A stretch of DNA of 64,000 nucleotides from a virus. Taxonomy: Duplodnaviria > Heunggongvirae > Uroviricota > Caudoviricetes. This document shows positions 7,806 to 48,662 of this stretch, piece after piece. Location of the stretch: IMG/VR virus record IMGVR_UViG_3300027156_000002, one strand, 5' to 3'. How positions within the stretch are numbered: position 1 is the stretch's first letter; the number at the start of each line of letters is the position of its first letter. Below the pieces are notes generated by a model, which searched no databases, had not been told where the DNA came from, and worked only from the letters and a program-made list of their open reading frames with translations. Position numbers and translations under genes: made by a program.

Positions 7806-7918
7806 GACTATTATACAGCCATTTTGAATTATTGTAAACCCCCAGTTTTGCAAATTTACAACGCAAAAACCCCTCTACTAGAGAGGGGTTGGGAAGACCC
7901 TACAGTTTGTAGGGTTAT
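7806..7918 (-). promoter_or_regulatory. PeSL-like cassette 2: promoter (-35 rc 7833-7838 GTTTACA, -10 rc 7810-7815 TATAAT) plus two tandem stem-loops (7866-7886 CCCCTCT/AGAGGGG and 7898-7916 CCCTACA/TGTAGGG)
   Basis: Read directly from the sequence. Same architecture as the other 5 cassettes. Confidence 0.7.
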
Positions 7919-8017
7919 TTTGAAGTTAAATTTGAGGGTTTGCAGGCTGTATCAACGCTACCACCTGCTAGACGATATGGAAGAAACCATATTTGTAGAA
8001 AATACCAAACCCAAAGA

Positions 8018-8248
8018 TCAATTGGATTTATCATTGTCTTTTCTTGCGAATTTTTCAGAAGCTGTGAATCCCAGTCCTGCTATCACAAGATAAATCATTG
8101 AATCGAATAAAGCTGGCGTTACCTTATACCCTTGGATGTCAGCAACGAACCCATAAGCACATAACAAAAACGCTAATAGTGTTACAACTCGTTTGCTGCT
8201 GACAGTTCCATTATGGCCATCAGATACCATGCTTCTTAACCAATTCAT
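8018..8248 (-). CDS. small membrane protein
   Basis: 76 aa, two hydrophobic segments. Confidence 0.4.
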   Translation of the reverse strand: MNWLRSMVSDGHNGTVSSKRVVTLLAFLLCAYGFVADIQGYKVTPALFDSMIYLVIAGLGFTASEKFARKDNDKSN

Positions 8249-8252
8249 GATA

Positions 8253-11899: not shown

Positions 11900-12372
11900 T
11901 AGTCTTTACTCTTGACTTTTTGTGGAACTCTGTCTGGATTATCTTCCCAGATTTTCTTAGCTTGCTCGCCAATTTTCCCATCAACAGGACATGGAGTTCC
12001 TGCATTCATCATTGCTGTAAATACTCGCTCATCTTGGCATAGTGTAGAAACTGCTGCTACCTTCATACCCATATCATACATGGAACGAGCTAATTTTAAT
12101 CTTTCGCAATTCTTGTCAACCATAGTTGCTCCAAAGGAGATACCAAGAATTTGTGTTTGTGCTGCGCCAGATACACCTACTGCGCAAACGTCTGAATTGA
12201 TAACTGTGACTGCTGGAGCCACCGCTGTTGGAGGTGGTGATTTTACTGTTGTGGTGCTATTTGAAGTTGAATCTGTGGTAGATCTACTTGTCGAATCAGT
12301 GACGATGGGATCAGCCATCGCTGGGGACAAAACCATGACAAAAAGCACCGCTGTAGCGATCTTTTTAGTCAT
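11899..12372 (-). CDS. secreted Ser/Thr-rich protein
   Basis: 157 aa. Signal peptide followed by TDSTSRSTTDSTSNSTTT low complexity. Confidence 0.45.
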   Translation of the reverse strand: MTKKIATAVLFVMVLSPAMADPIVTDSTSRSTTDSTSNSTTTVKSPPPTAVAPAVTVINSDVCAVGVSGAAQTQILGISFGATMVDKNCERLKLARSMYDMGMKVAAVSTLCQDERVFTAMMNAGTPCPVDGKIGEQAKKIWEDNPDRVPQKVKSKD

Positions 12373-12464
12373 TTTAAACCTTTATTTTAATTGTTTTATG
12401 ATCTCAACAACTACTCATGGTAACCTATTATTTAGGCATTTGAGGGGTTTTCGCAATAAGAAAT

Positions 12465-13604
12465 TTATCTTAATGGCATTCTCGGTGGTTTTTCTGGTGG
12501 AAGTTGTATAGAAATATTATCAGTTGTCTCAACATTAGATTCTAATGTTATACGTTTTTCACGTTGTCCAAAAGTTCCATACTCTTCTACTTTTGGAGTA
12601 GTTTCTGGAATAATAACATCTACTTCTTTATTCATCTCAGCCATTTGTTCTGGCTCTAGTTCTTCAGGTTTCTTTTTACCAAAGAAATCTTCGATAATCT
12701 TCTTAGATTCCATTGGCAATGGACTCTTTTTAAAGAACATATCTGACCACTTAGGTTTATCTGGTTCGGGTTCTAATTCATCATTATCTTTAAGAACTAT
12801 AGACTGAATTACATCATTACCTTCTGAATCAGTTTTAATTACTACTGACTTTACACTCTCATCTTTTCGCATTTGCCAGTTGGCAGCAACTAGCATTAGA
12901 ACTGCAAGTGGATCAAATACAATAACAATCATGATAATAACCCAGCGGACTGCTTTCTCAAGCAAATCCGTTTCTGGATTATCACCGTAAAGTAATGCTG
13001 CTATGTATTTTATTGGACCGACTTCGGCTTCGACTTTACGGACTTCGCTGGCGATTGGCGCACGCTCTTCGTTGAGTTTTGCGATCTTGGTTTGCGAGGT
13101 GCCGATTTCTTGGAGGATTCTGGCTCTGTCTTTTTGCTGGTTTCTACGGATGGAGATGGCTCGCTCTGCTCCGCTGGCTTCTGTGGTTCTGGCGATGGTT
13201 TGATCAACTTGAGAATCGAGTTGAGAAAGTTCTTTACGATTTGCATTTATGTTTTCCTTTTCTGTTTTAATTTTTTCATCTATTAGTGCAAGTTTTGCTT
13301 GCACATCACCTGATGGGATTGCTTGGTCCAAGTGTGCTTTACTTAGGTAACCAAAAATTCCCATAGAAGTTAATAGCATCAATACAACCAAAGCGAATGT
13401 AAAGTATGTCTTCATCAACACTGGAATTTCTTTCCAAGTTCGATAAAGCCATGATGCTACTACAAGTTTCGATGCTTCTAGCAACGAACCCATAATTAAA
13501 ATAGGAATAACAGCTGCTGCGAAAATTGCCACCAGACCCATAATTGAGTAGTAAGCTGCGCAAGCTGATAATGCCAATGCTGTTATGAATAATAGGTATT
13601 TCAT
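12465..13604 (-). CDS. membrane protein with coiled-coil region
   Basis: 379 aa. Multiple N-terminal TM helices, a central coiled coil and a C-terminal Pro-rich tail. Confidence 0.5.
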   Translation of the reverse strand: MKYLLFITALALSACAAYYSIMGLVAIFAAAVIPILIMGSLLEASKLVVASWLYRTWKEIPVLMKTYFTFALVVLMLLTSMGIFGYLSKAHLDQAIPSGDVQAKLALIDEKIKTEKENINANRKELSQLDSQVDQTIARTTEASGAERAISIRRNQQKDRARILQEIGTSQTKIAKLNEERAPIASEVRKVEAEVGPIKYIAALLYGDNPETDLLEKAVRWVIIMIVIVFDPLAVLMLVAANWQMRKDESVKSVVIKTDSEGNDVIQSIVLKDNDELEPEPDKPKWSDMFFKKSPLPMESKKIIEDFFGKKKPEELEPEQMAEMNKEVDVIIPETTPKVEEYGTFGQREKRITLESNVETTDNISIQLPPEKPPRMPLR

Positions 13605-14026
13605 AGTTTGTGTAGTATGTGTGATTTGTGGACTCTAACAGAGATTTGTCCGTTGTAATATTCTTCTGTTTCTAATACTTTCCTTAAAAACTGCTCTCGT
13701 GCTTCGATGTATGAACACTCTGCTTTTGATTTGCAGTAGTACAAAATTTCTCGTGTGAATGACTCCTCACCCAATCTCTCAACGTCTTTATTTAATTCAA
13801 TGCTAGAACCATAGTAAGTTAGCCAATCAGATTCAATCTTACCTCGAATCTTCTTTTTCTTTTTTGTTCCATTTTTCAACTTAACTGTTTTGTAAGTTGT
13901 CTTGGAAAATTTTGCTAACTTCTTACCTATGTATTTTCTATCGTTGGTTTTATTTGTGATCAAATAAACGAACCCAACACAATCCTCAGGTAATGATTCT
14001 ACTGTTTTGTTTTGATAATGCCACAT
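13601..14026 (-). CDS. GIY-YIG homing endonuclease (Seg-like), short form
   Basis: 141 aa. GFVYLITNKTNDRKYIGKK matches the GIY-YIG motif. Its start overlaps the upstream stop as TAATG. Confidence 0.65.
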   Translation of the reverse strand: MWHYQNKTVESLPEDCVGFVYLITNKTNDRKYIGKKLAKFSKTTYKTVKLKNGTKKKKKIRGKIESDWLTYYGSSIELNKDVERLGEESFTREILYYCKSKAECSYIEAREQFLRKVLETEEYYNGQISVRVHKSHILHKL

Positions 14027-19648: not shown

Positions 19649-20002
19649 TTATTTTATAAACTTTTGTAAAACGTCAATATGACCCAATGCATATCCAAGA
19701 ACTATTGCACCGCCTACAATCATCCATCTCCAACGCTCGAGAATATCAACACGTTCTTTAACTTTATCCATTGAAGACTTCAGAGATAAGTGCTGTTCTG
19801 AATCGGATTTTGCAAGTGCATCGATTTTTTCATCGAGCTTATCCATAATCTCACGATTACCTGTGGTAATTCTAGAATGCAATTCTTTGATGTCATTCTT
19901 TACTTCGCCGACATCTTCTTTGATGGCTTCGACCTGTGTTTCCAATTTGGCTACTCTTTCTTGATCTAACATAGTAGGAAAATTTTCGTTATTAGTTATC
20001 AT
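19649..20002 (-). CDS. coiled-coil protein with C-terminal TM anchor
   Basis: 117 aa. C-terminal hydrophobic WRWMIVGGAIVLGYALG. Confidence 0.4.
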   Translation of the reverse strand: MITNNENFPTMLDQERVAKLETQVEAIKEDVGEVKNDIKELHSRITTGNREIMDKLDEKIDALAKSDSEQHLSLKSSMDKVKERVDILERWRWMIVGGAIVLGYALGHIDVLQKFIK

Positions 20003-20012
20003 TACACAAGAC

Positions 20013-20279
20013 TCATTTCACACTATCAAAAATGTCTTTTTGTGTCTTGTACCACTCTATCCAAGTTTCTACTGCAATGCGACATTCATGGTACATACCA
20101 TAATTGTCAGAGACAACTTTGATAACCTCAGAAAGTTTATCAGTTGTTTCTATCTGTTTTAAGTCAGGACATGATACCAAAAGTGCTTGTGGAACTTCTG
20201 GGAACTTACGCTTGACTGGTGTGGTTAAACAACCAGATAGCAAAAATACTATTGGTATAATAATGAGTAACTTTCTCAT
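20013..20279 (-). CDS. small lipoprotein (o-spanin-like candidate)
   Basis: 88 aa. Lipobox LLSGC. Overlaps the upstream membrane protein by 4 nt. Confidence 0.4.
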   Translation of the reverse strand: MRKLLIIIPIVFLLSGCLTTPVKRKFPEVPQALLVSCPDLKQIETTDKLSEVIKVVSDNYGMYHECRIAVETWIEWYKTQKDIFDSVK

Positions 20280-20737
20280 TTCTTGACCTCAGGTCTTTTC
20301 GCTGCTTCATTAAGAATGTCAATTGTTTCTGATGACACTTTACATTGAGAATCAATCTTAACTTCTACATTCTTAATCTTTTCTTGTATTACTATTTGTG
20401 TATCTTTAACAACTTTAACTTTGTCAATATAAACCTTTTCGATTTTAACATTGGCTGTTTTAGCTTGCTCTTCAGATAATGCAACTTTGGCTTCAAGTTC
20501 TCTAACTCTTGCTCTCCATTCTTGCTCGATTGCCAAACCACCTTTGAAGTAAACACCTGCCAGAAGTAACACTATACTTACTACCTGCAATAGAGTACGA
20601 TAAGGTATAATCCAAGGTATCCAACGAATAGCAAGTTTAAATAAAACTGAAACTGTTGTACCTACTATACCAGCTAGTAATACACCATTAATTATCCAAA
20701 CGAGTAATGCGTCTGGAAGGAAACTTAACAACCACAT
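20276..20737 (-). CDS. membrane protein with periplasmic coiled coil (i-spanin-like candidate, but has more than 1 TM)
   Basis: 153 aa. A hydrophobic N-terminal roughly 75 aa is followed by a coiled coil. The gene is paired and overlapping with the lipoprotein gene. Confidence 0.35.
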   Translation of the reverse strand: MWLLSFLPDALLVWIINGVLLAGIVGTTVSVLFKLAIRWIPWIIPYRTLLQVVSIVLLLAGVYFKGGLAIEQEWRARVRELEAKVALSEEQAKTANVKIEKVYIDKVKVVKDTQIVIQEKIKNVEVKIDSQCKVSSETIDILNEAAKRPEVKK

Positions 20738-21686: not shown

Positions 21687-21859
21687 TAATCTGATGAATC
21701 TCTGCTTCAGTCTGCATCATTGTGTTGCGTAACTGCGTAAGAAAATCCATCTTTTCTTTGTGCGCTGCTCTCAGTGTTTCAAGTTCGCTTTTAATATTCT
21801 CTAACATACTAACCCATTCTAAAAGGAGGGGAGGAATCTCCCCTCAACCAATTTATTTA

Positions 21860-22129
21860 TTAGGCATCAGCACCGATAGTTGTATCATCAGTGTTGTCAT
21901 CACCAGTGATTGATGACATAGCAACTAGAACTTCAGTCTTGTTGCGTGTTACACCTTGTGCATCAGTGTATGTATTAGTTGTTACCCAGCCTGCATGAGC
22001 AACACCTTTAGCCTTGTTTGCTGCGACTGCTGCTTCTGCTGCAGAGATACCCTCAACAGCTGCTTTACCAGCAGTGTTTAGATATTGTGGCTTGCTGCCA
22101 GCTGCGTCTGTTTTTCCCCATAGTGCCAT
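21860..22129 (-). CDS. small Ala-rich protein
   Basis: 89 aa. GGAG SD upstream. Confidence 0.4.
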   Translation of the reverse strand: MALWGKTDAAGSKPQYLNTAGKAAVEGISAAEAAVAANKAKGVAHAGWVTTNTYTDAQGVTRNKTEVLVAMSSITGDDNTDDTTIGADA

Positions 22130-22139
22130 TTTATTCTCC

Positions 22140-24569
22140 TTATTTGAAATTAGGCAAGTGTACTGGATAGCCTGTCATTTCGACACCACTACCTTTTCTC
22201 TTAGCAATAGTTCCCTTCTGACGTGCGCCAGATGTAGAACCTGCTGGACGACCACGACCACGTTTCTCTGCAGCTGGTTTAGCTGGCTTGTCTTCATCGT
22301 CGTAACCTTTTTTGTCTGCTTCGGCTTCACCCTTATAATACTCAGTACCATAACCACGACCACTCACTTTACGTACTGGTAAGTCAGCCATTTTAACCTC
22401 ATCAAGAGATTCTACAAACTCTTTATATGTTTTCATGTTAGTTATTACCTCTCCGTTATCGTCAAATTGTTCCACTTCTTCTTTATGACTCTTCATACCC
22501 TTATTCTTCATATACCATGCAAGAGCAAAAGGATTATCAATTTCTTTATGCTTCTTCATTGCTTTAACAGTACCCTCAAATCCTGGAGGTGCTTTCTCGT
22601 CAACTTGTTCGACTTCTTCAGTTCTAGTTCTGCGACCTGCGAAATGATGAATACCTCTGTTCTTCAATTCAGAACGAGATGCTTCATATTCATATCGGTT
22701 TTTCACTTCACTAGGTCTTGTCTGACCAAGGGTTTTAACTTTTTTATCGAGAGTTGATGTTGCTTGTTTTTTGGCAATCTTATTGGTTGCCGTGTACAAC
22801 CCCGCATCTCTTTTATCACTAGTATCGCCAGACTTTAAATTCTTTCTAACATATGACTTTAAAGTTTTCTGATCTAATTCATCGATCTGTTCAACTTCTT
22901 CGCAGGACACCTTATTAGTTGGATGACCATTGATTGGTTTCTTAGTTGCTTTGTATGCTTTATTCTCAGGTGTTCCTTTGATATACTTCTTATCTGGAAC
23001 TGGAGCAACTGGAGCTTGTTCATCAACAACGTCTTCTTTGATTTTACTCTTTGCAGCAATAGCTTGTTTAGCAAGTTCACGTGCACGACTCATTGGTGAT
23101 TGAGTAGTGCCATCTGAGTTTTTAACAGGTTTAGTCTTTGTATATGGACCATCAAATGGAACACTATTCTTAGAAGAACCACCACCAATCTCGTCACCTT
23201 TACGACGATAAGCAGATGCTGGCTTTTGGTAGTAACCTTCTTCCATTTCAACTTCTTCTTTGTAGATAGTTCCAATATGTTTTGCTTTAATCTTTTGTAG
23301 AGAGTTGCGACCACTAGCGTTCATAGTGTGGTTAACATCAAAGCCACCACTATGAGCATAAATCTCAATACCATCAAGATTGTCACGATGGGTTTTAACT
23401 TTTTCTTTAGCATACTTCACAGCATCTTCTTTAGTTTTGAATGGTGCTGCTTCCACCACTTGTTCAACTGACTCATCAACATAAACTGCACGAGTTCTTT
23501 CTCCAGGATGATACGCTTTAGTGCGTTTACCAGTAATACTCTTTCCGTGATCGTCAGCTTCTTTAGAAGTTTTGAAACCTTTTTTATGCGCAGTCATATT
23601 ACCATAAACATCCATTGAAGATGAATGATATGTACCGTGAACTGTATTCTTTTTGACCTTAGCATGATTCCAAGTTTGACTAGCTTCTTCTATTTCAACT
23701 TCTTCGTTGGTTTCTTTCTTACCTGTCAAGAAGTTCTTAAAGTTTTTCAAATCTGATTTGATAGATGGTTTCTTACCCATATCTTTTAAATAACTCTTAT
23801 CGGCAATGTCAGTGTTCTTTGCTGGAACTGATTCATCAAAGTGTTTGTAATCAACAGTAGTTTTCTTACTGCCTGATGTTCTGTGAGAAACAAAATGAAC
23901 TTTGTCATCTTCACGTGTTACATGAACTTGATTACCAGTTTCATCTTTATACATAGCCTTCGAATGTTCACCACTTGGTCGTAAACCCTTAACAATCTTT
24001 TGGTGTTCTGGATGTAGAGGATAAGAAATATCTTTGCCGTGATGAACAGTCATCATCTTACCCCAAGAATAATCTTTCTTGCTTACTGTGGCTTCTTCTA
24101 ACTCAACTTCTTCTTTTAATTTCGCTGAGATTTTATGAACTTTATATCCTTTGTCAGAGAAATGTTTTCTTGCAGCACGCTCTGCATGCTTTGGAGTTGC
24201 TGCCAATATAGATAGTGCTTTCTTTATAACTTCACGCTTCTCACCATCAGCAGGAGTTCCAGTATTATCAGAAACATGAGCAACTACAGTATGACGTCTA
24301 GAGTAATCATCTTCTTCGTCAATAGTTTCTTCAGAAACTAAAATATACTTGTTATTTGATGGGTTCAACTTAGGTTTTTGTCCAGGTGCTGCAGCAGCTT
24401 TCGCATCTTGATAAGTTGCAAACACTCTAGCTTCGATAATATCGTCAGCTACTTCTGTTTCTTCAGGAACACAGTTAGGAACTTTTCTTCCATTCTTATC
24501 CTTTAAACCAACTGCTTTATAGCCTTTCCAGCAAGCACTGGCTAAATCTGCAAATTTCTTTTTTGCCAT
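22140..24569 (-). CDS. large basic Lys-rich protein with six EEVE(x)EE repeats and C-terminal AT-hook (GRGRPAG)
   Basis: 809 aa. The repeats NEEVEIEEA, KEEVEMEEG, CEEVEQIDE, TEEVEQVDE, KEEVEQFDD and KEEVELEEA are read directly. RGRP is an AT-hook core. Confidence 0.55.
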   Translation of the reverse strand: MAKKKFADLASACWKGYKAVGLKDKNGRKVPNCVPEETEVADDIIEARVFATYQDAKAAAAPGQKPKLNPSNNKYILVSEETIDEEDDYSRRHTVVAHVSDNTGTPADGEKREVIKKALSILAATPKHAERAARKHFSDKGYKVHKISAKLKEEVELEEATVSKKDYSWGKMMTVHHGKDISYPLHPEHQKIVKGLRPSGEHSKAMYKDETGNQVHVTREDDKVHFVSHRTSGSKKTTVDYKHFDESVPAKNTDIADKSYLKDMGKKPSIKSDLKNFKNFLTGKKETNEEVEIEEASQTWNHAKVKKNTVHGTYHSSSMDVYGNMTAHKKGFKTSKEADDHGKSITGKRTKAYHPGERTRAVYVDESVEQVVEAAPFKTKEDAVKYAKEKVKTHRDNLDGIEIYAHSGGFDVNHTMNASGRNSLQKIKAKHIGTIYKEEVEMEEGYYQKPASAYRRKGDEIGGGSSKNSVPFDGPYTKTKPVKNSDGTTQSPMSRARELAKQAIAAKSKIKEDVVDEQAPVAPVPDKKYIKGTPENKAYKATKKPINGHPTNKVSCEEVEQIDELDQKTLKSYVRKNLKSGDTSDKRDAGLYTATNKIAKKQATSTLDKKVKTLGQTRPSEVKNRYEYEASRSELKNRGIHHFAGRRTRTEEVEQVDEKAPPGFEGTVKAMKKHKEIDNPFALAWYMKNKGMKSHKEEVEQFDDNGEVITNMKTYKEFVESLDEVKMADLPVRKVSGRGYGTEYYKGEAEADKKGYDDEDKPAKPAAEKRGRGRPAGSTSGARQKGTIAKRKGSGVEMTGYPVHLPNFK

Positions 24570-24572
24570 TTA

Positions 24573-25019
24573 TTATTCTCCAATTTTCTTTAAGCTGGAA
24601 CGTATCATCCAACCATGTTTCTTGTGAGCATCCAATCTTCCAGCAATAAAATCAGCAAAACCCTGCTCTTTGTCTTTCGATAATAGATCGAACAGTTTAT
24701 TTAGGCTCTCGATGGTTTTATTGTTGGCTTCTTGTAAATCTTGCAGCATTTCAGTTACATTACTAGCGTTATTATCATTATCGATAGTTGTAACTTTATA
24801 CATTTCTTCTATATTCTTTGGAGCATACTCATCAAGCGCACGCATCTCTTCTGCCATTGGATCAACTGCTCCATAAATTTCTTCATAAAGATTGCCAAAA
24901 AATTCATGATACTGTGGAAAGAACATCCCTTCCAAGTTCCAATGATAAGATTGTGCCTTAAAATACATTAAGAATGTATTTGCTAAGCAAATTTTCGCAG
25001 TAACTAAAGTTTCATTCAT
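24573..25019 (-). CDS. Dps/ferritin-like four-helix-bundle protein
   Basis: 148 aa. The pattern resembles Dps (YHWN...F..H.........E..D..AER). Confidence 0.5.
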   Translation of the reverse strand: MNETLVTAKICLANTFLMYFKAQSYHWNLEGMFFPQYHEFFGNLYEEIYGAVDPMAEEMRALDEYAPKNIEEMYKVTTIDNDNNASNVTEMLQDLQEANNKTIESLNKLFDLLSKDKEQGFADFIAGRLDAHKKHGWMIRSSLKKIGE

Positions 25020-25020
25020 A

Positions 25021-25518
25021 TTAACAATTCCATTTTCTTAATGCCAATGCTTTACGAGTTGGCTCGCCATTTGGCTTCTTCATTGGTCCTTCTACGCCAG
25101 ACATTCTGGCACAGAAAGACTTGCGACGATTGGCAGCTTTGCTACCAGCTTTTAATTTTGATGGTGGTGTTGTTACAGGTGCTTTAAGATTGCCACCCTC
25201 TGTTCTGTTATAATGATCTCGACCCTTTTGTGTCAAGCCACCAGTTGAAGATTTAAATCCTTTTGCATCAACAGCTGCTTCTTTAACAGTTAAAGATTTT
25301 TCATGGTGTTCATCTGCCTTTTCAGCATGCTTGTCTGCTGATGCCGAACGACCCTTCGACTCATGCCACTCGGACATAGCATCATGATGATCCGCCATGT
25401 GTGCATGAAATGACTTCATATCACCTTTAGATTCAGCGTCATTGGCTTTTGATAAATGCTCTTCTGCCTCATCATGTTTGGCATTATCTTCTGTAAGGTA
25501 ATCTTTAAAACGCAACAT
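25021..25518 (-). CDS. His-rich acidic internal-head-protein candidate with capsid-targeting-sequence-like N-terminus (MLRFKDYLTE)
   Basis: Start re-assigned to ATG 25516-25518, overlapping the upstream stop by 11 nt. The N-terminus matches the paralog family and the T4 capsid-targeting sequence MKTYQEFIAE, and ends in a L-T-E gp21-type cleavage site. His-rich (HAHMADHHDAMSEWHE, KHAEKADEHHEK). Confidence 0.5.
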   Translation of the reverse strand: MLRFKDYLTEDNAKHDEAEEHLSKANDAESKGDMKSFHAHMADHHDAMSEWHESKGRSASADKHAEKADEHHEKSLTVKEAAVDAKGFKSSTGGLTQKGRDHYNRTEGGNLKAPVTTPPSKLKAGSKAANRRKSFCARMSGVEGPMKKPNGEPTRKALALRKWNC

Positions 25519-27385
25519 TTCCAGATCCTTTAGTATATTTTGTATGTGATAATCTTGCTTTCTCAACAGCACGAATACGTGGAACAAGTTTCATTGCTAC
25601 ACGACCGATAACTTGTTTGCGTCTTTGAATAACTCTTTCTACACGCTCTTTCTCTCCAACTGAAAGTTTGTTATAGTCACGACCACGGAGTAGACGTTTC
25701 TTCATTAACTTAATTGCAAGACGACGTGCACGTTTGTTTGTAGTCTTAGTGGTGGCACGAGTTCTTAATGCGATGGATGCTTTACGTTCACGCTTAGCCT
25801 TAGATTTTGCAAAACGAACTCTTGCACGCATACGTTCTGTTCTTGAAAGAACTTCCAGAATTGCTTGCTCTTGCATTGTGCAAGCACATTCTTCATCGTC
25901 ATATTCTTCGCCAGTATCTGGATCGATAATACCAAACTCATCATCTTCATACTCATCGATGAATTCATCATCTGGTGTAGTATTAATAATGTGATCGATT
26001 TCTTCATCAGTAAGATCTAATTCTTTTTCTAACACATCTCTAGTGTGTTCACATCCTTCTTCGCCATGCTTTACGTTGTGTACTGGACAAATACCAGTAT
26101 CTTCCCATTCTTCATCATGTGGTTCATCGCCAGCATGATTAACTTTGCTCACATCAACTGGAGCTACTTCACCCAATTGTTGTTTAATTTTTTGTTTGCG
26201 TAAAGTTTCAGATGCTCCTGGTTCAACTAAACTATGTCCAGGTTTGCAGTGATTCTCTTTTACATCTTTCTTCTGTTCTTTTTCTTTTTTCTCACGTTCC
26301 TGTCTTTCTTGTTTCGCCATGCGAGACATTCTCTTGATGAAAGAAGGTTTATTATAATATGGAGTTGCTTCATCCAAAGAAGTTTCTTCTTGAGTAAGTT
26401 TCTGTGGAATTAAATTTGTGTCATATTGAATACCAACTTGGTTAGCCAGTTGTAACATCTTATTAACAATGTTCAATGCTTCTGGATTCAAAGTCTTGGA
26501 TTTGATTCTGCGTAGTGCAGTATTAACAAGCAACTCAGCGTTTGCAGTTGCCTCAACTTTATCCACACCAAGCATAGTTGCGATTACTCGAGCAACTTTA
26601 ATCTTATCGTTGGTTTTTAAAGTCTTATCTGTTAAGTCTTCGTTCATTTCTTTTTCTTCCGTTGGTATTACGTCTTGTATCCATTTAGAAACTAATTTGC
26701 CACTAGCTTCTTTAAGTAGTAAATGGTTTGAGCCACGTTTAACTACTGCTAATTTTTCTCCACTACATTCAACGATATCTCCGACATTAAAAATTTCACC
26801 ACGGAAATATTGTTCACGTACAGTATCTTTGACCAAATTAAGCTGCTCTTTAATTGGTTCTAAACCCATCGTAATACGGACATCGTTCATCAAACGACGA
26901 CCATCTAACTCACGAACAGAACTTGGCAACTTTTTCTTAAACTCTTCAAAAATTCCTTTAGTAGCAAAAGATTTCATCTTTGAAGAATTTACATCTGGGT
27001 CTTTATCTAAAGTAGAAATAATCTGAATGGAACTTGATTCTTTAACAATTTTTTTCAAGCTGGCTGATTGTTCGCTGCCGACAACCAATACAACATGTTT
27101 ATACTTCTGCGACAAATCTTTAATCGTTTCCGATAAAGATGTGATACTTTTAAAAGAAGTATTTGGGAACATTAAATTTAGATAATGTTCTTTCTTATCT
27201 TCTTGGATAATACTGTTCTTAGATGGGGATGTATAGATTACGTGGTCAGAATTTTTTTGTTCTGCCAGTTTTTTGACTGTCTTGACTAGTAGTTCGTGAC
27301 CGATTGTAGGAGGGTTAAACTCGCTAACTGCACAAACAATAGTACTGGACGGTAGTTCTTTGATTAGTTGTCTGTAATCTTTCAT
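25505..27385 (-). CDS. capsid-targeting-sequence-bearing protein with N-terminal HxGH nucleotidyltransferase-like domain and charged C-terminal region
   Basis: 626 aa. N-terminus MKDYRQLIKE followed by LPS. VCAVSEFNPPTIGHELL is a (H/T)xGH Rossmann nucleotidyltransferase motif. The C-terminus is Arg/Lys-rich. Confidence 0.55.
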   Translation of the reverse strand: MKDYRQLIKELPSSTIVCAVSEFNPPTIGHELLVKTVKKLAEQKNSDHVIYTSPSKNSIIQEDKKEHYLNLMFPNTSFKSITSLSETIKDLSQKYKHVVLVVGSEQSASLKKIVKESSSIQIISTLDKDPDVNSSKMKSFATKGIFEEFKKKLPSSVRELDGRRLMNDVRITMGLEPIKEQLNLVKDTVREQYFRGEIFNVGDIVECSGEKLAVVKRGSNHLLLKEASGKLVSKWIQDVIPTEEKEMNEDLTDKTLKTNDKIKVARVIATMLGVDKVEATANAELLVNTALRRIKSKTLNPEALNIVNKMLQLANQVGIQYDTNLIPQKLTQEETSLDEATPYYNKPSFIKRMSRMAKQERQEREKKEKEQKKDVKENHCKPGHSLVEPGASETLRKQKIKQQLGEVAPVDVSKVNHAGDEPHDEEWEDTGICPVHNVKHGEEGCEHTRDVLEKELDLTDEEIDHIINTTPDDEFIDEYEDDEFGIIDPDTGEEYDDEECACTMQEQAILEVLSRTERMRARVRFAKSKAKRERKASIALRTRATTKTTNKRARRLAIKLMKKRLLRGRDYNKLSVGEKERVERVIQRRKQVIGRVAMKLVPRIRAVEKARLSHTKYTKGSGNVAF

Positions 27386-27856: not shown

Positions 27857-28188
27857 GCATCTACTATTACATCGATTCTAACTTTATTTGTTTTAACAAC
27901 AGATTCGCAGAATACTTTGTTCTTGGATTCTCCTGCTTTCTTGATAGCTTCTTGCAATTTTCCAATAGCTTCTGCTTGTGGGTCAGATCTTAAAACAGCA
28001 TAAACTTTTAATCTCTCGATATACTCGTCTGCGTTTTGGAACATTAACTGATTACCACATTCTAATTTATCAACTGCTATTTTGGTATCAACTAAACGAC
28101 CAAACATTTCTGGGTCGTGTGGTCTTGGTAGGATAACAGAACATGCAGATAAAGAAACTACGGCAAGAATCAGTATTAACTTTTTCAT
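27841..28188 (-). CDS. lipoprotein
   Basis: 115 aa. Signal peptide plus lipobox LSAC. Confidence 0.45.
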   Translation of the reverse strand: MKKLILILAVVSLSACSVILPRPHDPEMFGRLVDTKIAVDKLECGNQLMFQNADEYIERLKVYAVLRSDPQAEAIGKLQEAIKKAGESKNKVFCESVVKTNKVRIDVIVDAWKGR

Positions 28189-29231
28189 ACAGCTTTACCT
28201 GCACTCTTTAATGAACTTAATGGATCAGATTGAGAGTCGAACTTATGGGCTTGAGAAGCAAACTTCTTACCATTGTGATAGAAGTGAACAGAGCCACCAC
28301 TGGATTTAACTGTAATATTCTTATGGTCTTTAAGGATATGTTCGTGGTCTTCGCTTGGCTTACTTGTATGGTGTTGAACACCCTTAGCAGTTTGATATGT
28401 TGTATGCTTAATAAAACTGTGCCCCTTTTCTTCTGCAGGAGTCTTATGTGCATGTAGAACTTCACGAATATGTTTAACTACATGGTCGTGGTTATTGTTG
28501 TCTAAGTGGTGCTGCAACTCAGCAGCATGATCGTGAGCAACTTTATGTAAAAGTTCTTTGTTGCGTTTCTTAATATCATCATGCAACTTAGGATCTGCTT
28601 TTGCAATTTCTTTACGCTGGTCTTTATTCTTACCTTTTAATTTAGGATGAGCAGCAAGTATTGCGTCTTGATGATCTTTATAATGCTGTCTGGCTTTTGA
28701 ACCACCAGATTCCATACCAAGACTTGAAGACGGAATGTTTTTACTGGACTTATCGCTGACTTTTAAACTTACGCCATGATGATGTTCTTTACCTGTCTTT
28801 GGATGCTTGGTAGTTACATAAACGTCAGAAGAATCTTCTTTCTGTGTTGCTTTGTGACCAGTTACCTTTTCTGTATCTCCAGGTTTTGAAGTCCAATGCA
28901 CTGCTGAAATCTTATGCCCTTTGTGAGTAGAATCGATATGTGCCTTAATATGATTGGCAGCACTCTCTGCATTTTTAGCGATCTTATCATAATCTTTAGG
29001 GTGAATTTGTTTCTTTAATCTCTCGTGTGCTTGCTCAGGTGTTTCATCGTTTTCATTCTTGTGTTTCTCTAGATGCTTACCACCATTTAAATGTTTGCCG
29101 ACTAATAGTTCGTGCAACACACCTTTAGTGTTATTGGAAACACCACCCTCTTTGGAAGCATCATCAGCTGCTTCGATAAGCAATTCTTCGTAGTATTGTT
29201 CTTCTGCTAAGAACGATTTAAAATTTTTCAT
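28185..29231 (-). CDS. His/Lys-rich capsid-targeting-sequence-bearing internal-head-protein candidate
   Basis: 348 aa. N-terminus MKNFKSFLAE followed by EQ. Extreme His and Lys content (HHHG, HDHAAELQHHLDNNNHDH). Confidence 0.5.
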   Translation of the reverse strand: MKNFKSFLAEEQYYEELLIEAADDASKEGGVSNNTKGVLHELLVGKHLNGGKHLEKHKNENDETPEQAHERLKKQIHPKDYDKIAKNAESAANHIKAHIDSTHKGHKISAVHWTSKPGDTEKVTGHKATQKEDSSDVYVTTKHPKTGKEHHHGVSLKVSDKSSKNIPSSSLGMESGGSKARQHYKDHQDAILAAHPKLKGKNKDQRKEIAKADPKLHDDIKKRNKELLHKVAHDHAAELQHHLDNNNHDHVVKHIREVLHAHKTPAEEKGHSFIKHTTYQTAKGVQHHTSKPSEDHEHILKDHKNITVKSSGGSVHFYHNGKKFASQAHKFDSQSDPLSSLKSAGKAV

Positions 29232-29845
29232 TACTTTACACCCATATGTTTACGTAAGTCGTGATACAATTCTGTTTTATGTTCTGGTTTCATCTGTGAC
29301 GATAGATGAGATTCAAACTTTTTCTGTTCACCAGCTGCAGCGTGACCACGAAGTTTAGTTCCAGAAATACCTTCAGTTCCTTTTGCATTTGGATCACGTT
29401 TACCTGCATTGTGGAACTTTATACTCTTGAAATTGTAATGTCCATGTGGACCTTCTTTTCCATTATACTTTTTAATCAATTCATGCATTGGTTTACGATC
29501 ATCGCCACCAGCAAAGTGTAAATGAGTAACACCTTTTTTGTGCAACTCAGCAGCATGATGAAGAACAGTAGGATGTTCTTTATCAGCTACCTTAACATTG
29601 GTTCCAGGAAATGCTCTCTCTGCATGTTTCTTTTTAACATCAGGTGGTAATGGATTAGATCCGTCTTTAGTTGCATGCGAACCTGATAATACCAATGTAT
29701 GTTCTGCATTATGTTTCTTGGCAGTATCATGCATATGGGTTACGAGTTTCTCATGACCAGCAGTTGGAGGATTCATTCGACCAAAAGCAAGAACATGATG
29801 AACGTCTTTTTCTGATTCTACAATATAAGATTTAAATGTCTTCAT
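29231..29845 (-). CDS. capsid-targeting-sequence-bearing HxGH nucleotidyltransferase-like protein (paralog of 25505..27385 N-domain)
   Basis: 204 aa. N-terminus MKTFKSYIVE followed by SE. AFGRMNPPTAGHEKLV motif. His-rich. Confidence 0.5.
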   Translation of the reverse strand: MKTFKSYIVESEKDVHHVLAFGRMNPPTAGHEKLVTHMHDTAKKHNAEHTLVLSGSHATKDGSNPLPPDVKKKHAERAFPGTNVKVADKEHPTVLHHAAELHKKGVTHLHFAGGDDRKPMHELIKKYNGKEGPHGHYNFKSIKFHNAGKRDPNAKGTEGISGTKLRGHAAAGEQKKFESHLSSQMKPEHKTELYHDLRKHMGVK

Positions 29846-31035
29846 TTTCTTGGCTTTAATAAGTTGGCTTTACTGAATTCTGCACGATTAACAATTTTAG
29901 ATGGTTCTTGTTTACCTTTGTGCGTATAATTTATAACATATCCCTCAGGATCTGTTTTCTTATCTCCAATATGATGCTCAAGACCGCCAGTATGCTGGTT
30001 TAAATTCTTAACTAAAAGGTTTTTACCTTGCTGTAAATGCTGATGCATTTTAAATAGATTCTCATAATGCTCTTTATTTTTCTCAACATGCGCAGCGTGA
30101 CCAGAACCAAGATTACGCTGAGCAGTTTGTCCCTTCTCAGACTTTAGTTTAGACGCTTTCTTTTCATAAACATCCTGAATATGTTTAATGAATCCTTTTG
30201 CGTTTGGTTTTGTATCTTTGCGAACTGTTTGATTGATGTAAGTTCCCAAATGTCCAGCATCACCTTTGTGTTCTGGATGGATCGCACCATACATCTTATC
30301 GCCGTGTTTATCATGAATATCTTTTGCAGCATTCATGTGGCTTTGGAATCTTTTCTGATCTGCTTGAGTATATTTAACTTTGCTAGTATCATGCTCGGCA
30401 CCAGCAAGATGCACATCTTTGTGTTGACCAAAACTTTTCATATCAGGATGAGGAGTTGCTTTCATCGAAGCAAAATCTTTACCCTCATATTTTTGGTGAA
30501 CAACTAACCCAAATTTAGATTGGGCTGTTTTCTTGGCTTCATCGCCATGCGCAGTATACTTAATTGTATTTGGTGTATAAGAAGCAGTTCCCTTCTTCTC
30601 ATCATATTTAACATCACCCTCAGAGTGCATAACGTCACCCTGATATACACCTTGCTTAGGTGCAACCTTTGGTAGATGTTTTAGAGCATGCTTTAATTTT
30701 TCTGCGAGACCTGGAGCATGACCATGGTTCTTGTCAATGTCCTTAGCAGTATAGTTGATTTTTGGGTTTTTATTGAACGCTGACTTGGAAGCAACAAAGA
30801 ATTTTCCAGTTTCTGGATGCTTTCCAAAAACCAATGATGGCGATCCGTCATATTTCATGGTCAGATCGCTGGATTGTTTCCCAGCTTTAATGTGTTCATG
30901 TCCATGGTTTAGTGCACCAAGAGCATGTTCGAACCCTGAAGAACCATGGAATAGAGGGCGATCCTCTACATGATGGATGTGCTTCAGTTTCTCTTCTTCG
31001 GTTTCTTCTTTAAGGAATGTTTGGAACGACTTCAT
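29842..31035 (-). CDS. capsid-targeting-sequence-bearing protein with KxDG nucleotidyltransferase (ligase/capping-type) motif
   Basis: Start re-assigned to the 2nd ATG (MKSFQTFLKE followed by ETEE), which aligns residue-by-residue with T4 MKTYQEFIAE. TMKYDGSPSLVF resembles ligase motif I. Confidence 0.5.
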   Translation of the reverse strand: MKSFQTFLKEETEEEKLKHIHHVEDRPLFHGSSGFEHALGALNHGHEHIKAGKQSSDLTMKYDGSPSLVFGKHPETGKFFVASKSAFNKNPKINYTAKDIDKNHGHAPGLAEKLKHALKHLPKVAPKQGVYQGDVMHSEGDVKYDEKKGTASYTPNTIKYTAHGDEAKKTAQSKFGLVVHQKYEGKDFASMKATPHPDMKSFGQHKDVHLAGAEHDTSKVKYTQADQKRFQSHMNAAKDIHDKHGDKMYGAIHPEHKGDAGHLGTYINQTVRKDTKPNAKGFIKHIQDVYEKKASKLKSEKGQTAQRNLGSGHAAHVEKNKEHYENLFKMHQHLQQGKNLLVKNLNQHTGGLEHHIGDKKTDPEGYVINYTHKGKQEPSKIVNRAEFSKANLLKPRK

Positions 31036-31120: not shown

Positions 31121-31152
31121 TTAATCCATTGAAAACAATGACTTACAGAGGT

Positions 31153-31160
31153 ATTTATAA
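31153..31160 (-). promoter_or_regulatory. T4-type late promoter core TATAAATA (minus strand)
   Basis: Plus-strand TATTTATA at 31153-31160 is the only exact occurrence found in the window. It lies upstream of PeSL-3 and the internal-protein block. Confidence 0.4.
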
Positions 31161-34184: not shown

Positions 34185-35486
34185 TTACGCAAAAAATTCA
34201 TCAAGTGATCCAGACTTCATTGATTCTGGATGATATTTAATTAGGATTTCATCTCCAAGTTTTTCACGACAATAGTCGTACCACTCGTCAGAAGTCCACA
34301 TACCTTCGGAAACACCATTCCAAAGTTTACGTTGCATCGGATGTTCAGGATTCTTGCGACGTTGTTCAACGAAGTCATAACGACAGTTCTCATATTCCCA
34401 AGAACCCAACTCAAGCATCTTCTCACGGAAGTAGCAAACCAAACTGATACGCTCAGAACCTTCTTCACAAACGATAGGAGTGTTGCCATGCATAACATCA
34501 TGGTTGTTAATCAATAGCAAGTCGCCTGGACGTGGATTAACAGCAACACGATACTCAGGTGCAATCAAATAACCACCACTGTAACGTCCATCATTTGACA
34601 AAGTTAGTAGATTTGAAAGACCACTATTTAAATCGCCAACGTCATAGTGAGCAGCAGTTCTGAATGTTTTATTCACAGTAACAGTTGTGAATGGAGTTCC
34701 AGGAACTAGGAAACGAGGATCAACTTGTCTCGCTGCTTTCATCTGTGCTTCATAACGCTGTGGTAGTAGATCCCTAAAACCATTTGACAATGTTTGTAGG
34801 AATGGGTAAGCAAGTGCAAACTTCTCAGGATTCTTGGCAGTGTAAGATGTTGCACGACCATAAGGAATGCGAGGATAACGATCGAACCAACCTGCGATGC
34901 CAGAATAAACTGAGTTAGCGTAAGTGGTTGCACAAATCAATTCATCAGCAACAAAGTTTGCTTCTTTAATTTGTTCTTGTCGTGGAAGTGTACGCACTTT
35001 CTCAACCCACTGATCGAAATTAAAATTGGTTGACTTAGTTCTTTCAATCGACCAAACATTATTGCGATTAGATGGAGTAGGTGGTTTACCCTTATAGCGT
35101 TTGATAATATCTTCTACAGGATCTCCTGCAAGACCAGAGTATGGGTCAAGGAAGTATTCAACCATCTCAGATTCATACTCAGTAACCCATTCACGATTAC
35201 CCAACTTCTCACCACGTGGACCTGCTGCTGCGCCACGATTCTGTGTTTCAGTTGCAGCTTCACGAAGACCTGCATACGCTTGGTCTTGTTGTTCTTTGGT
35301 GAAGAAGTTCTTACGGAACTTCAATACAATCCTGTCTTCATTGATAGGATCTTCACCATAAGGTGCTGGCATATAAACATCAGTATCTTCTTCGATAAGA
35401 TGGTCGTAATGATTCTCGTCAACGAATTGACCAATCAAATGTTTACAATCAATCTTTTTATCAGCGACAATAACTTTAACTGTCAT
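34185..35486 (-). CDS. Fe(II)/2-oxoglutarate dioxygenase (P4H/AlkB-type 2OG-FeII_Oxy C-terminal domain) with large N-terminal domain
   Basis: 433 aa. HYDVGD (HxD)...LTLSNDG..GGYL...PRPGDLLLINNHDVMHGNTP (distal His)...ERISLVCYF (RxS) read directly. Confidence 0.65.
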   Translation of the reverse strand: MTVKVIVADKKIDCKHLIGQFVDENHYDHLIEEDTDVYMPAPYGEDPINEDRIVLKFRKNFFTKEQQDQAYAGLREAATETQNRGAAAGPRGEKLGNREWVTEYESEMVEYFLDPYSGLAGDPVEDIIKRYKGKPPTPSNRNNVWSIERTKSTNFNFDQWVEKVRTLPRQEQIKEANFVADELICATTYANSVYSGIAGWFDRYPRIPYGRATSYTAKNPEKFALAYPFLQTLSNGFRDLLPQRYEAQMKAARQVDPRFLVPGTPFTTVTVNKTFRTAAHYDVGDLNSGLSNLLTLSNDGRYSGGYLIAPEYRVAVNPRPGDLLLINNHDVMHGNTPIVCEEGSERISLVCYFREKMLELGSWEYENCRYDFVEQRRKNPEHPMQRKLWNGVSEGMWTSDEWYDYCREKLGDEILIKYHPESMKSGSLDEFFA

Positions 35487-45410: not shown

Positions 45411-45743
45411 TTATGCTGCCACCTTAATGTTTGACCACTTAGCAAGTTTCTCTTTCTTTTTAATTCCTGCTTGAGCCACTGCATTACCATCAATAATTTG
45501 TTCTTCAATCATCATCTCGATCATACAAAGCAAATCACCGATCTCTTCTTCAAGACGTTCACGATTAGTTGCACCATTGTGTTCGCCATCAATCCCGAAA
45601 CGAAACACCTTACTGATTGCTTGTGTAACTTCTGCACATTCCTCTTGGCAGATAAGCATAATTTCTTTTTGCTTCTCCGAAGTAATTTTATTCATTGCAA
45701 ATTTATTCACTTTTAATTCCTTCAATATGTTTACATTTTCCAT
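45411..45743 (-). CDS. MazG-like all-alpha NTP pyrophosphohydrolase
   Basis: 110 aa. EEcaEvtqA...rERLeEEigDLL pattern. Confidence 0.55.
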   Translation of the reverse strand: MENVNILKELKVNKFAMNKITSEKQKEIMLICQEECAEVTQAISKVFRFGIDGEHNGATNRERLEEEIGDLLCMIEMMIEEQIIDGNAVAQAGIKKKEKLAKWSNIKVAA

Positions 45744-46047
45744 GATATTTGTAACCGATGCAAGTACAAGACATACCAGACTCAGTTTCTTCTACATAAT
45801 ACACATGGTCTTTACTACCAAGAATTTTCCATCGTTTATTAGATGTCTTCTCTTCATAGCGTTTAATTATTTGAAACTTCCGATACCGAGTATCGAATCC
45901 CAAAGGTTTCTTGAACTTCATAAAATCTTTTGGATTGTTCCACTTAAAGTACCCAATGATTTTATCCATTGAATTATTCATGAGGTATGTATGGTTTGGT
46001 TGACGATACTCAACATCCCATACGGTAATCTCTTTAGCGAGAATCAT
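45703..46047 (-). CDS. SWIM zinc-finger protein
   Basis: 114 aa. CTCIGYKYHGKCKH (CxC...CxH). Confidence 0.4.
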   Translation of the reverse strand: MILAKEITVWDVEYRQPNHTYLMNNSMDKIIGYFKWNNPKDFMKFKKPLGFDTRYRKFQIIKRYEEKTSNKRWKILGSKDHVYYVEETESGMSCTCIGYKYHGKCKHIEGIKSE

Positions 46048-48274: not shown

Positions 48275-48662
48275 ATTGTTCTCCTTTTCAGCGAGTTTAA
48301 AATTGCTACCCCGAAGGCATAGCGTTAATGCTGGTTACTGGTTCCAGCGACAGCTTAACGTACTGACAGCTTTACCAACGATTCGTAACTTAGCGGTCCT
48401 AAGGTGAATTCTTGGTAGTGTTTTACATGGTTACTACCACCATGTCCCATCCCGAGGGATGCGTACTTGCATGGGTAAATCTATTTAGGCAGCAGGAAGT
48501 TCTGTAGCAGCAGCTTCTTGTTGCTTAATAATTTCTTCTACCTGTGGTTCACCCTGTTGCTTGATTTTGCTGATTAGGGTTACAACTTCCTCAAATGGAT
48601 GTTTACCAAGTACACGCAGAATCAAATTGCATTCGTCAACTGTTAGTTCAAGTTTAATCATG

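Follow-up and report, generated by a model that had tools for sequence, protein, structure and literature searches.

The T4-like myoviruses count among the ocean's most abundant viruses. To our knowledge, very little has been learned of what they enclose in addition to DNA, the internal proteins of the T-even phages excepted. This article describes a locus from an uncultured marine member of the group, located in a 64,000-nucleotide stretch (the window) of IMG/VR virus record IMGVR_UViG_3300027156_000002, in which an 809-amino acid (aa) basic protein, p809, is encoded next to a 148-aa mini-ferritin of the Dps type. p809 is a mosaic of small modules whose junctions resemble cleavage sites of the T4 prohead protease. 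The reading that we favour, and to which we would give an even chance, is that p809 is a late-expressed, head-targeted polyprotein that would be cut by the prohead protease into basic, DNA-associated internal proteins.

The closest described counterparts are T4 IPI, IPII, IPIII, and Alt. The T4 internal proteins are basic and number about 1000 per head; they touch DNA with their lysines, and they are a diverse set of anti-defence proteins with only the capsid-targeting sequence (CTS) in common (PMC3012670). In T4 the CTS is MKTYQEFIAE. Targeting depends on its positions 4 and 7, and processing on positions 8 and 10; the protease, gp21, cleaves after Glu in L/I-X-E and was first seen to do so at a Glu-Ala bond (PMC9026906). 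p809 is likewise the product of a T4-like phage, basic and Lys-rich, hypervariable among relatives, equipped with L/I-x-E↓A sites (the arrow marking the bond that would be cut), and plausibly associated with DNA. It differs in that a single chain of 809 aa holds about 15 candidate sites and about 12 modules, whereas each internal protein is small and cut once, and in having a conserved AT-hook tail and a coupling to Dps; its packaging and cleavage are, moreover, predicted from sequence. The leader pattern of the T4 internal proteins, M-K-x-aromatic-x-x-hydrophobic-L/I-x-E, is matched by neighbours and by many orthologs of p809 and not by the N-terminus of p809 itself. Pfam and PHROG searches detected no homology of p809 to IPI, IPII, IPIII, or Alt, the sole match being to phrog_9737 (aa 9-50).

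Two further systems invite comparison. The inner-body and ejection proteins of the giant phages phiKZ, 201phi2-1, and SPN3US are large and head-internal, are cut by a gp21-related protease at several x-x-E motifs, and yield DNA-associated fragments (PMC9026906); they belong to another phage group, have the motif S/A-x-E, and show no homology to the p809 family, whose members are mosaics in which small modules are shuffled. The polyvalent proteins of phages and conjugative elements (Iyer et al., 2017; PMC5512222) carry many disparate domains per chain, turn over their architectures quickly, and have been proposed to be delivered with the DNA and split into separate products. With its shuffled modules, p809 falls within their definition of 2-15 disparate domains in a variable architecture. 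Polyvalent proteins, however, mostly contain recognizable enzymatic domains and often a zincin-like peptidase of their own, whereas the modules of p809 are 35-100 aa long and its processing would rely on the head protease; none of them matches a polyvalent-type effector, enzymatic, or peptidase domain in Pfam, NCBIfam, or the PDB folds. As far as our searches show, the p809 family lacks any description in Pfam, PHROG, or the literature, and a Dps-coupled, multi-module head-cargo polyprotein has not been described before; Dps in phages (rare), AT-hooks, and CTS/gp21 cargo are already known. The literature searched yielded nothing on DUF6321 (a domain encoded next to the locus), on the motifs discussed below, or on CTSs in cyanophages.

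Modular architecture and inter-module junctions

p809, of which an identical copy is present on an independent ENA contig (P0001), contains 14.6% Lys and has a net charge of +29 and an isoelectric point (pI) of 9.31. The first-pass annotation of this DNA had described the protein as strongly Lys-rich, with six dispersed copies of an EEVE motif and an AT-hook. The composition agrees with that description, though it does not set p809 apart within the window, where two other large proteins reach 15.2% Lys. All six EEVE motifs are also present (Table 1), compared with a mean of 0.04 and a maximum of two in 20,000 shuffles of p809, none of which contained six. Their interpretation as a dispersed repeat has had to give way to another: from the sequence comparisons, the modules, about 12 in number, shuffle independently of one another, and EEVE is the form that the linker between them most often takes.

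Module boundaries were drawn from ungapped high-scoring segment pairs (HSPs) against homologs with shuffled module order; the ends of gapped BLAST HSPs had been considered as borders and were uninformative, as these alignments ran through the low-complexity linkers. There are 422 detectable relatives of p809, all metagenomic and many on contigs of 160-167 kb, and the order and number of the modules vary among them, the C-terminal ~105 aa (M12) alone being constant. Some proteins of 112-178 aa amount to hardly more than M12, and a word-indexed search with this module returned only eight short proteins. When M4 alone was compared with 1.8 billion representatives, it was recovered end-to-end in 305 proteins; these are 94-1299 aa long, and M4 may sit anywhere along them. 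p809-type modules are also found, in relatives (P0072 and P0086), inside a cytidylyltransferase-like paralog encoded two genes upstream.

The AlphaFold2 (AF2) model of p809 resembles beads on a string, in which M4 and M3 are folded, a few helices appear elsewhere, and the linkers and AT-hook are disordered. The overall predicted local distance difference test (pLDDT) score is 56.6, which is low. A Foldseek search of the PDB with the whole model gave no hit at E <= 0.001, and a BFVD search gave only two uncharacterized phage relatives; since the model is of low confidence overall, fold searches with single modules might still be productive. Pfam, NCBIfam, and PHROG searches with the whole protein and with eight separate modules produced only a sub-threshold AT_hook match and phrog_9737. 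Among cultured phages, tblastn gave one partial match, in Synechococcus phage BUCT-ZZ01, and blastn matched the 3′ end of the DUF6321 gene only. A cysteine-containing motif, CW(K/T)GYKxxGxKxKxGKKVPNCV, makes up the N-terminal module (aa 1-40; 24450-24569), occurs within many of the mosaic proteins, and recurs at the C-terminus of a "possible cytitidyltransferase" of Prochlorococcus phage P-HM1 (L007, 9763-11070); it may represent a small disulfide or metal knuckle.

For 11 module types, upstream sequences were collected from 273 family members. Immediately ahead of the module starts they almost always read (L/I/V/M)-x-E-(A/G/S), whichever module precedes; M4, for instance, is preceded by LKE↓A, ITE↓A, or LAE↓A, M7 by ISE↓A, M8 by VEE↓G, and M11 by LDE↓K. 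The core of this motif, [LIVM]xE (hereafter phi-x-E), lies within 10 aa upstream of 231 of the 277 distinct module starts (83%), compared with 15% of random windows, and while its distance from EEVE varies, it stays beside the module start. The seven Leu/Ile codons found at P3 and all four Ala codons at P1′ of M4 junctions, together with the mere 11-12 nt of DNA common to the linkers (GAAGAAGTNGAR), indicate a constraint on protein rather than on DNA. A DNA-level repeat underlying EEVE was rejected, this short core being what codon bias predicts. At the level of sequence, the junction motif is exactly the specificity pattern of T4 gp21. This specificity seems to be conserved in marine T4-like phages, as judged from P-HM1, which encodes gp21 and whose gp23 propeptide ends ...AVLTE↓APTN; the T4 gp23 site, which we take to be ...FLTE↓AEIGG, is equivalent to the LTE↓A of P-HM1.

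By sequence pattern, p809 contains 15 phi-x-E sites, 14 of them at module junctions. In the AF2 model, 11 of the 15 P1 Glu residues fall in segments with pLDDT <50 and none in segments with pLDDT >=70. In-silico cutting at all sites yields 11 larger fragments, of which nine have a pI of 8.1-10.0, together with five acidic peptides 5-10 aa long. This predicted outcome is similar to that in T4, whose basic internal proteins are retained in the head while its acidic peptides exit.

The AT-hook call of the first-pass annotation is borne out as far as the sequence allows. GRGRPAG lies at aa 771-777 within EKRGRGRPAG, and the only invariant columns in an alignment of 100 homologs are K769, G771, R772, G773, R774, P775, and G777, so that an absence of the hook from homologs, named in the same annotation as grounds for abandoning the idea, was not encountered. 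RGRP occurs in 100 of 120 hits, the remainder being mostly cytidylyltransferase paralogs. Seven of nine residues are identical to AT-hook 1 of HMGA1 (KRGRGRPRK), a solved hook peptide that binds AT-rich DNA with micromolar affinity, and EKRGRGRP is the HMGA1 core (PMC11526092). As in HMGA proteins, the hook lies in a region predicted to be disordered (pLDDT <50 at 769-773) and has an acidic stretch alongside. p809 differs from these proteins in its phage context and in having only one hook, with A-G in the place of R-K after it; this missing basic flank accounts for the Pfam AT_hook (PF02178) score of 15.6 bits, over profile positions 1-10 of 13, falling just below the cutoff of 17.4. DNA binding by p809 is predicted.

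The Dps protein and its pairing with the mosaic gene

The 148-aa protein is, on the sequence and model comparisons, a bona fide Dps with an intact ferroxidase site. It matches Pfam Ferritin (PF00210) with an E-value of 8.3e-20 (71.6 bits, the cutoff being 24.5; the match spans profile positions 8-139 of 142) and aligns over its full length with Dps proteins of the PDB, the best being 8ff9 (E 1e-20). Its AF2 model (pLDDT 95.1) is a four-helix bundle with a short BC helix (helices 3-28, 34-49/52-61, 70-76, 88-115, and 119-143), and Foldseek superposes it on 8ff9, 2chp, and 2c41, from Pseudomonas, Bacillus, and Thermosynechococcus, with TM ~0.91 and a root-mean-square deviation of 1.2-1.4 Å (1.3 Å for P. 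aeruginosa 8ff9). The ferroxidase ligands H26, W27, H38, D53, and E57 have canonical spacing (His-x12-His ... Asp-x3-Glu, plus Trp) and align with the corresponding residues of PDB Dps proteins; H26, W27, H38, and D53 are invariant and E57 is conserved in at least 90% of 62 homologs, and all five are conserved in at least 95% of 121 sequences. The Dps/ferritin-like fold proposed by the first-pass annotation is thereby upheld, as is its statement that Dps is rare in phages: tblastn matched 31 of 50,697 phage records.

Sequence comparison further places the protein in a well-conserved phage-specific clade of at least 342 clusters, whose members are 144-149 aa long, share 59-91% identity with the Dps of the window, and are encoded on phage-sized contigs. 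It shares fold, length, and ferroxidase ligands with bacterial Dps proteins (P. aeruginosa PA0962, 8ff9; Bacillus subtilis MrgA, 2chp) and with the few phage Dps proteins (of S-SRM01 and of Proteus and Aeromonas phages). It is, however, only 20-30% identical to the solved proteins, forms its own clade, scores below every Dps equivalog cutoff of NCBIfam, and, compared with other Dps genes, has a fixed place in front of the mosaic gene. The protein is acidic (pI 4.9), with an N-terminal extension of about 11 aa containing one Lys; homologs begin MIETSKQA... or MNETV.... The Lys-rich terminal DNA-binding tail, which is confined to the E. coli-type subgroup, was sought in this Dps and its homologs and not found, and the protein has no capsid-targeting-like leader. 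Nothing in its sequence indicates packaging or self-sufficient DNA binding. Its most likely role would be the oxidation and sequestration of Fe(II) in the infected cell; such removal of iron could protect replicating or packaging DNA and buffer iron for phage iron enzymes. Because the phage encodes the iron-dependent NrdB and a TET/JBP dioxygenase, iron buffering or Fenton protection is a plausible role for Dps standing alone.

Both genes are on the minus strand, so the Dps gene lies upstream of the p809 gene and not downstream, as had been annotated. The Dps stop codon is separated from the p809 ATG by 3 nt, and a GGAG lies in the last codons of Dps. The coupling was counted over 49 IMG/VR loci and three long-contig loci, of which only those with complete mosaic open reading frames (ORFs) and enough upstream sequence (42) were scored. 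In about 34 of the 42, a Dps homolog ends between -11 and +12 nt from the mosaic start; in two further loci Dps lies ~2.6 kb upstream, and in six scored loci it was undetectable. Dps stands directly upstream of the mosaic gene in all three distinct long-contig loci. The pairing is conserved and not obligatory. While the Dps clade keeps the identity given above, entire modules come and go in the mosaic gene, even between closely related members.

Proposed head targeting, virion context, and rival explanations

The context of the locus offers further support for head targeting. A scan of the six-frame translation of the window with the leader pattern M-[KL]-x-[FY]-x-x-[FYL]-[LI]-x-E gave six matches, all within 22.4-31.0 kb, of which five are the N-termini of consecutive genes upstream of p809 (Table 1) and the sixth is internal to p809 (MKTYKEFVES). 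The positions conserved in these leaders are 4, 7, 8, and 10, those of functional importance in the T4 CTS, and many members of the mosaic family themselves begin MKxFKEhLxEA. The sequence TATAAATA, which we take to be the T4-type late-promoter consensus, occurs once in the window, against 4.5 copies expected, in the gap that precedes the block's first gene. In relatives it occupies the same position upstream of the DUF6267 gene (L001), lies directly upstream of the mosaic gene (L024), and is also found upstream of homologs of p89, the 89-aa protein encoded immediately after p809 (L033, L034, and L053). A terminator-like hairpin with a T-run after p89 may end the transcription unit; the number of such hairpins in the window is not above chance. 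The locus probably forms the distal part of a late transcription unit.

Several neighbours are tied to virions. T4-GC190, the cyanophage ortholog of the 204-aa cytidylyltransferase of the block, has been detected experimentally in purified S-SM1 virions (PMC3037559). As both cytidylyltransferase paralogs have CTS-like leaders, a nucleotidyltransferase may be packaged and injected, by analogy with T4 Alt. p89 is 36% identical (E 6e-14) to the N-terminus of P-HM1 PHM1_167, annotated as a head protein, and a p89 homolog follows the mosaic gene by 10-31 nt in most related loci. In BUCT-ZZ01 (L061, 4561-7551), the large terminase gene is directly followed by genes for a mosaic relative of 612 aa and for a relative of the 626-aa protein. 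This 612-aa protein, the only mosaic relative from a cultured phage, has CWKGY...PNCVP and KKGYRVH modules and no AT-hook. In T7-like pelagiphage and cyanophage genomes, namely HTVC022P (L008, 1504-1995) and S-RIP1 (L009, 1342-1787), DUF6321 and "LYANIHAKRKR...KGRP" occur as separate, extremely basic proteins of 40-93 aa, whose genes in HTVC022P (DUF6321 and GRP-containing) lie between those for scaffold and capsid; these are candidate DNA-condensing head proteins, and the GRP-containing basic peptide recurs as a module in a mosaic protein (P0215).

Under the favoured reading, p809 would be made late in infection and taken into the prohead by means of capsid-targeting-like helices, as the T4 internal proteins are, where a gp21-type protease would cut it at its linker sites. 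The short acidic linker peptides would be lost, and about ten basic fragments (pI 8-10) would stay with the packaged DNA, the C-terminal one anchored in the minor groove by its AT-hook, and all would enter the host alongside the DNA. The turnover of modules suggests, by analogy with T4 IPI*, that at least some fragments may act at the phage-host interface, for example in anti-defence or takeover. A more far-reaching proposal, which we consider unlikely in this full form, is that the gene is a cassette array of a kind that abundant uncultured marine T4-like phages may possess, in which a dozen interchangeable mini-effectors would be produced from one late gene, diced in the capsid by the head-maturation protease, tethered to the genome by the HMGA-type AT-hook, and injected, with the swapping of modules at the protease-site linkers quickly giving rise to new anti-defence repertoires; in its boldest form, the C-terminal module would also recruit the co-translated Dps dodecamer, and the DNA, whether packaged or on its way into the host, would be shielded by a cover that scavenges iron and acts as an anti-oxidant.

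Several observations weigh against the polyprotein reading. The N-terminus of p809 (MAKKKFADLASACWKGY, starting MAKKKFADLASACW) is not CTS-like, and its CTS-like sequence is internal (aa 712-721), whereas the T4 CTS is defined at the N-terminus. Leaders of this kind also resemble the AT-rich, well-translated N-termini that are frequent in phage genes. The p809 gene sits among replication genes and outside the head-gene cluster; no gp21 gene is present in the 64-kb window, its presence and specificity being presumed from what is known of the T4-like core genome; and the promoter and terminator calls are consensus matches only. The junction motif is missing at two p809 junctions, M4/M5 (F-D-E) and M11/M12 (QFDD). 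A family-wide search for avoidance of phi-x-E within the segments between acid-rich stretches found no depletion and indeed an enrichment (z +3.8), which the controls E-x-[LIVM] and [LIVM]-x-K shared; as the linker definition was crude, this comparison lends no support. DUF6321 occurs in T7-like podoviruses as well, in which we know of no gp21-type protease. The family is absent from cultured phages except for the partial relative in BUCT-ZZ01. Finally, a single AT-hook binds DNA with only micromolar affinity (PMC11526092).

Other explanations can be built from the same observations. The 90-kDa p809 could be an intracellular, uncleaved DNA-architectural protein that coats or organizes phage or host DNA by means of its AT-hook and lysines and recruits the tail-less Dps dodecamer, supplying it with a DNA-binding tail in trans; this comes near the host-nucleoid/iron module suggested in the first-pass annotation. 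The conserved, closely spaced gene pair, the invariant AT-hook, the acidic Dps with no Lys-rich N-tail, and the setting among replication and nucleotide-metabolism genes speak for such a protein, but it would leave unexplained the phi-x-E-A motif kept at the protein level, the fast turnover of modules beside a stable Dps, and the CTS-like leaders and virion-tied neighbours, and several lineages carry the mosaic gene and no Dps. We regard this explanation as unlikely. That p809 is instead a non-packaged, multi-domain polyvalent host-interaction protein, in which the EEVE linkers are spacers or recombination joints and the likeness to gp21 sites and the CTS is coincidental, seems to us quite unlikely. 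The short DNA core of the linkers could serve as microhomology, modules do move between the mosaic gene and the cytidylyltransferase paralog, phi-x-E is not depleted within the segments between acid-rich stretches, and multi-domain polyvalent proteins are a known phage theme (PMC5512222). Mere spacers or joints do not, however, account for a phi-x-E-A motif that varies in DNA and is kept in amino acids, or for a phi-x-E that stays by the module start while its distance from EEVE changes, nor does coincidence readily account for the late-promoter and virion-linked context.

A role as a prohead core or scaffold accessory in the manner of T4 gp22, gp67, and gp68, cut up and mostly expelled before packaging and with no later function, would accommodate the CTS-like helices and the many phi-x-E sites, gp22 being itself cut into many fragments (PMC9026906) and that of P-HM1 having 12 [LI]xE sites. 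Scaffold proteins, however, are acidic and helical, whereas p809 is a basic protein that has beta-rich folded modules and carries an invariant motif of DNA-binding type; its hypervariable modules are unlike a size-determining scaffold, and T4-like phages such as P-HM1 already have a dedicated gp22. This alternative strikes us as very unlikely. The first-pass annotation had suggested that p809 and Dps might both be packaged DNA-associated proteins. For p809 the suggestion gains contextual support from the CTS-like leaders, protease-type junctions, late promoter, and virion-tied neighbours; it does not extend to Dps, which is acidic and has no leader.

Should the polyprotein reading prove correct, the CTS/gp21 cargo system of T4 would extend beyond single small proteins to an array that is modular and recombines rapidly, and hundreds of uncharacterized mini-domains would become candidate anti-defence or takeover factors. 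Linkers of the form phi-x-E↓A, in combination with an MKxFxEhLxE leader, would then offer a simple rule by which packaged proteins could be spotted in phage genomes from metagenomes. That the gene is so tightly and widely coupled to a phage Dps clade with an intact ferroxidase site suggests a link, open to testing, between the handling of DNA by the phage and iron or oxidative stress in waters that are sunlit and poor in iron, and BUCT-ZZ01 would be a usable experimental entry point to the mosaic family.

Genomic setting of the locus

The window comprises replication and nucleotide-metabolism genes of a T4-like marine myovirus, with nearly all ORFs on the minus strand. Its family-B DNA polymerase is 55-57% identical to cyanomyovirus gp43, and it also encodes UvsX, a DnaB-like helicase (gp41), primase (gp61), thymidylate synthase, ribonucleotide reductase, ligase, and an SbcC-like protein, in the gene order of P-HM1 and Methylophilales phage Melnitz. 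The features of the locus are listed in Table 1.

Table 1. Positions of p809, its modules and linkers, and neighbouring features in the 64,000-nucleotide window
Feature	Nucleotides	Strand	Residues of p809	Basis or remarks
p809, 809-aa basic mosaic protein, ~12 modules	22140..24569	-		ORF, composition, ungapped HSPs, AF2
M1			1-40	
M2			42-83	
M3			85-153	
M4, ~88-aa beta-rich domain (KDYSWGKMMTVHHG...), best-folded module	23826..24089	-	161-248	pLDDT 92-95
M5			245-292	
M6			296-369	
M7			370-439	
M8			445-509	
M9			519-553	
M10			557-654	
M11			656-700	
M12, family-defining C-terminal module (CTS-like helix, acidic stretch, AT-hook, TGYxxHLPN tail)	22143..22460	-	704-809	common to all orthologs
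Linker 1, EEVELEE	24093..24113	-	153-159	M3/M4, L-E-E↓A
Linker 2, EEVEIEE	23685..23705	-	289-295	M5/M6, I-E-E↓A
Linker 3, EEVEMEE	23238..23258	-	438-444	M7/M8, M-E-E↓G
Linker 4, EEVEQIDE	22878..22901	-	557-564	M9/M10, I-D-E↓L
Linker 5, EEVEQVDE	22596..22619	-	651-658	M10/M11, V-D-E↓K
Linker 6, EEVEQFDD	22458..22481	-	697-704	M11/M12, no phi-x-E
Internal CTS-like MKTYKEFVESLDE, then L-D-E	22398..22436	-	712-724	pattern scan; predicted helix 715-723
AT-hook-like core K769-R-G-R-G-R-P-A-G777	22239..22265	-	769-777	homolog alignment, Pfam, HMGA1 comparison, AF2
Dps (mini-ferritin), 148 aa, acidic	24573..25019	-		Pfam, PDB alignment, homolog conservation, AF2 and Foldseek
DUF6321 protein, leader MLRFKDYLTE	25021..25518	-		
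626-aa cytidylyltransferase-like paralog, leader MKDYRQLIKE	25505..27385	-		carries p809-type modules in relatives
348-aa protein, leader MKNFKSFLAE	28185..29231	-		
204-aa cytidylyltransferase, leader MKTFKSYIVE	29231..29845	-		ortholog of cyanophage T4-GC190
DUF6267 protein, leader MKSFQTFLKE	29842..31035	-		first gene of block
T4-type late-promoter consensus TATAAATA (putative)	31152..31159	-		gap before first gene of block
p89, 89-aa protein immediately downstream of p809	21860..22129	-		phrog_613 (head protein), E 2.7e-13
Terminator-like hairpin and T-run after p89, possible end of transcription unit	21831..21845	-		consensus scan; intergenic position

Scans of the whole window for tRNAs and Rfam families gave no matches. 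The genome is tightly packed apart from four long gaps of 386-633 nt between minus-strand ORFs (11900-12464, 45411-46043, 7867-8252, and 48275-48662), the first of which holds a 199-aa plus-strand ORF (11912-12511).

Just upstream of the block lies the gene for the TET/JBP-type 2-oxoglutarate-Fe(II) dioxygenase (34185-35486, minus strand; Pfam E 3e-24), with a syntenic Tet_JBP gene in one relative (L001, 1-1224); two others (L003 and L004, 1-1204) have ADDT plus a P-loop nucleotide kinase in its place, so that DNA-hypermodification cassettes seem to differ among related phages. A SegE-like GIY-YIG homing endonuclease (13601-14026, minus strand; Pfam E 2e-32) is encoded ~850 bp downstream of nrdB with one ORF between, an arrangement that recurs in L001 and L003. 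A possible lysis/spanin cluster (19649-20737, minus strand) lies a short way downstream of the block, from which DUF7207 and two small genes separate it. Its candidate genes encode a 153-aa protein that has N-terminal transmembrane helices as well as a coiled coil, a lipoprotein of 88 aa (MRKLLIIIPIVFLLSGC), and a protein of 117 aa whose transmembrane helix is C-terminal.

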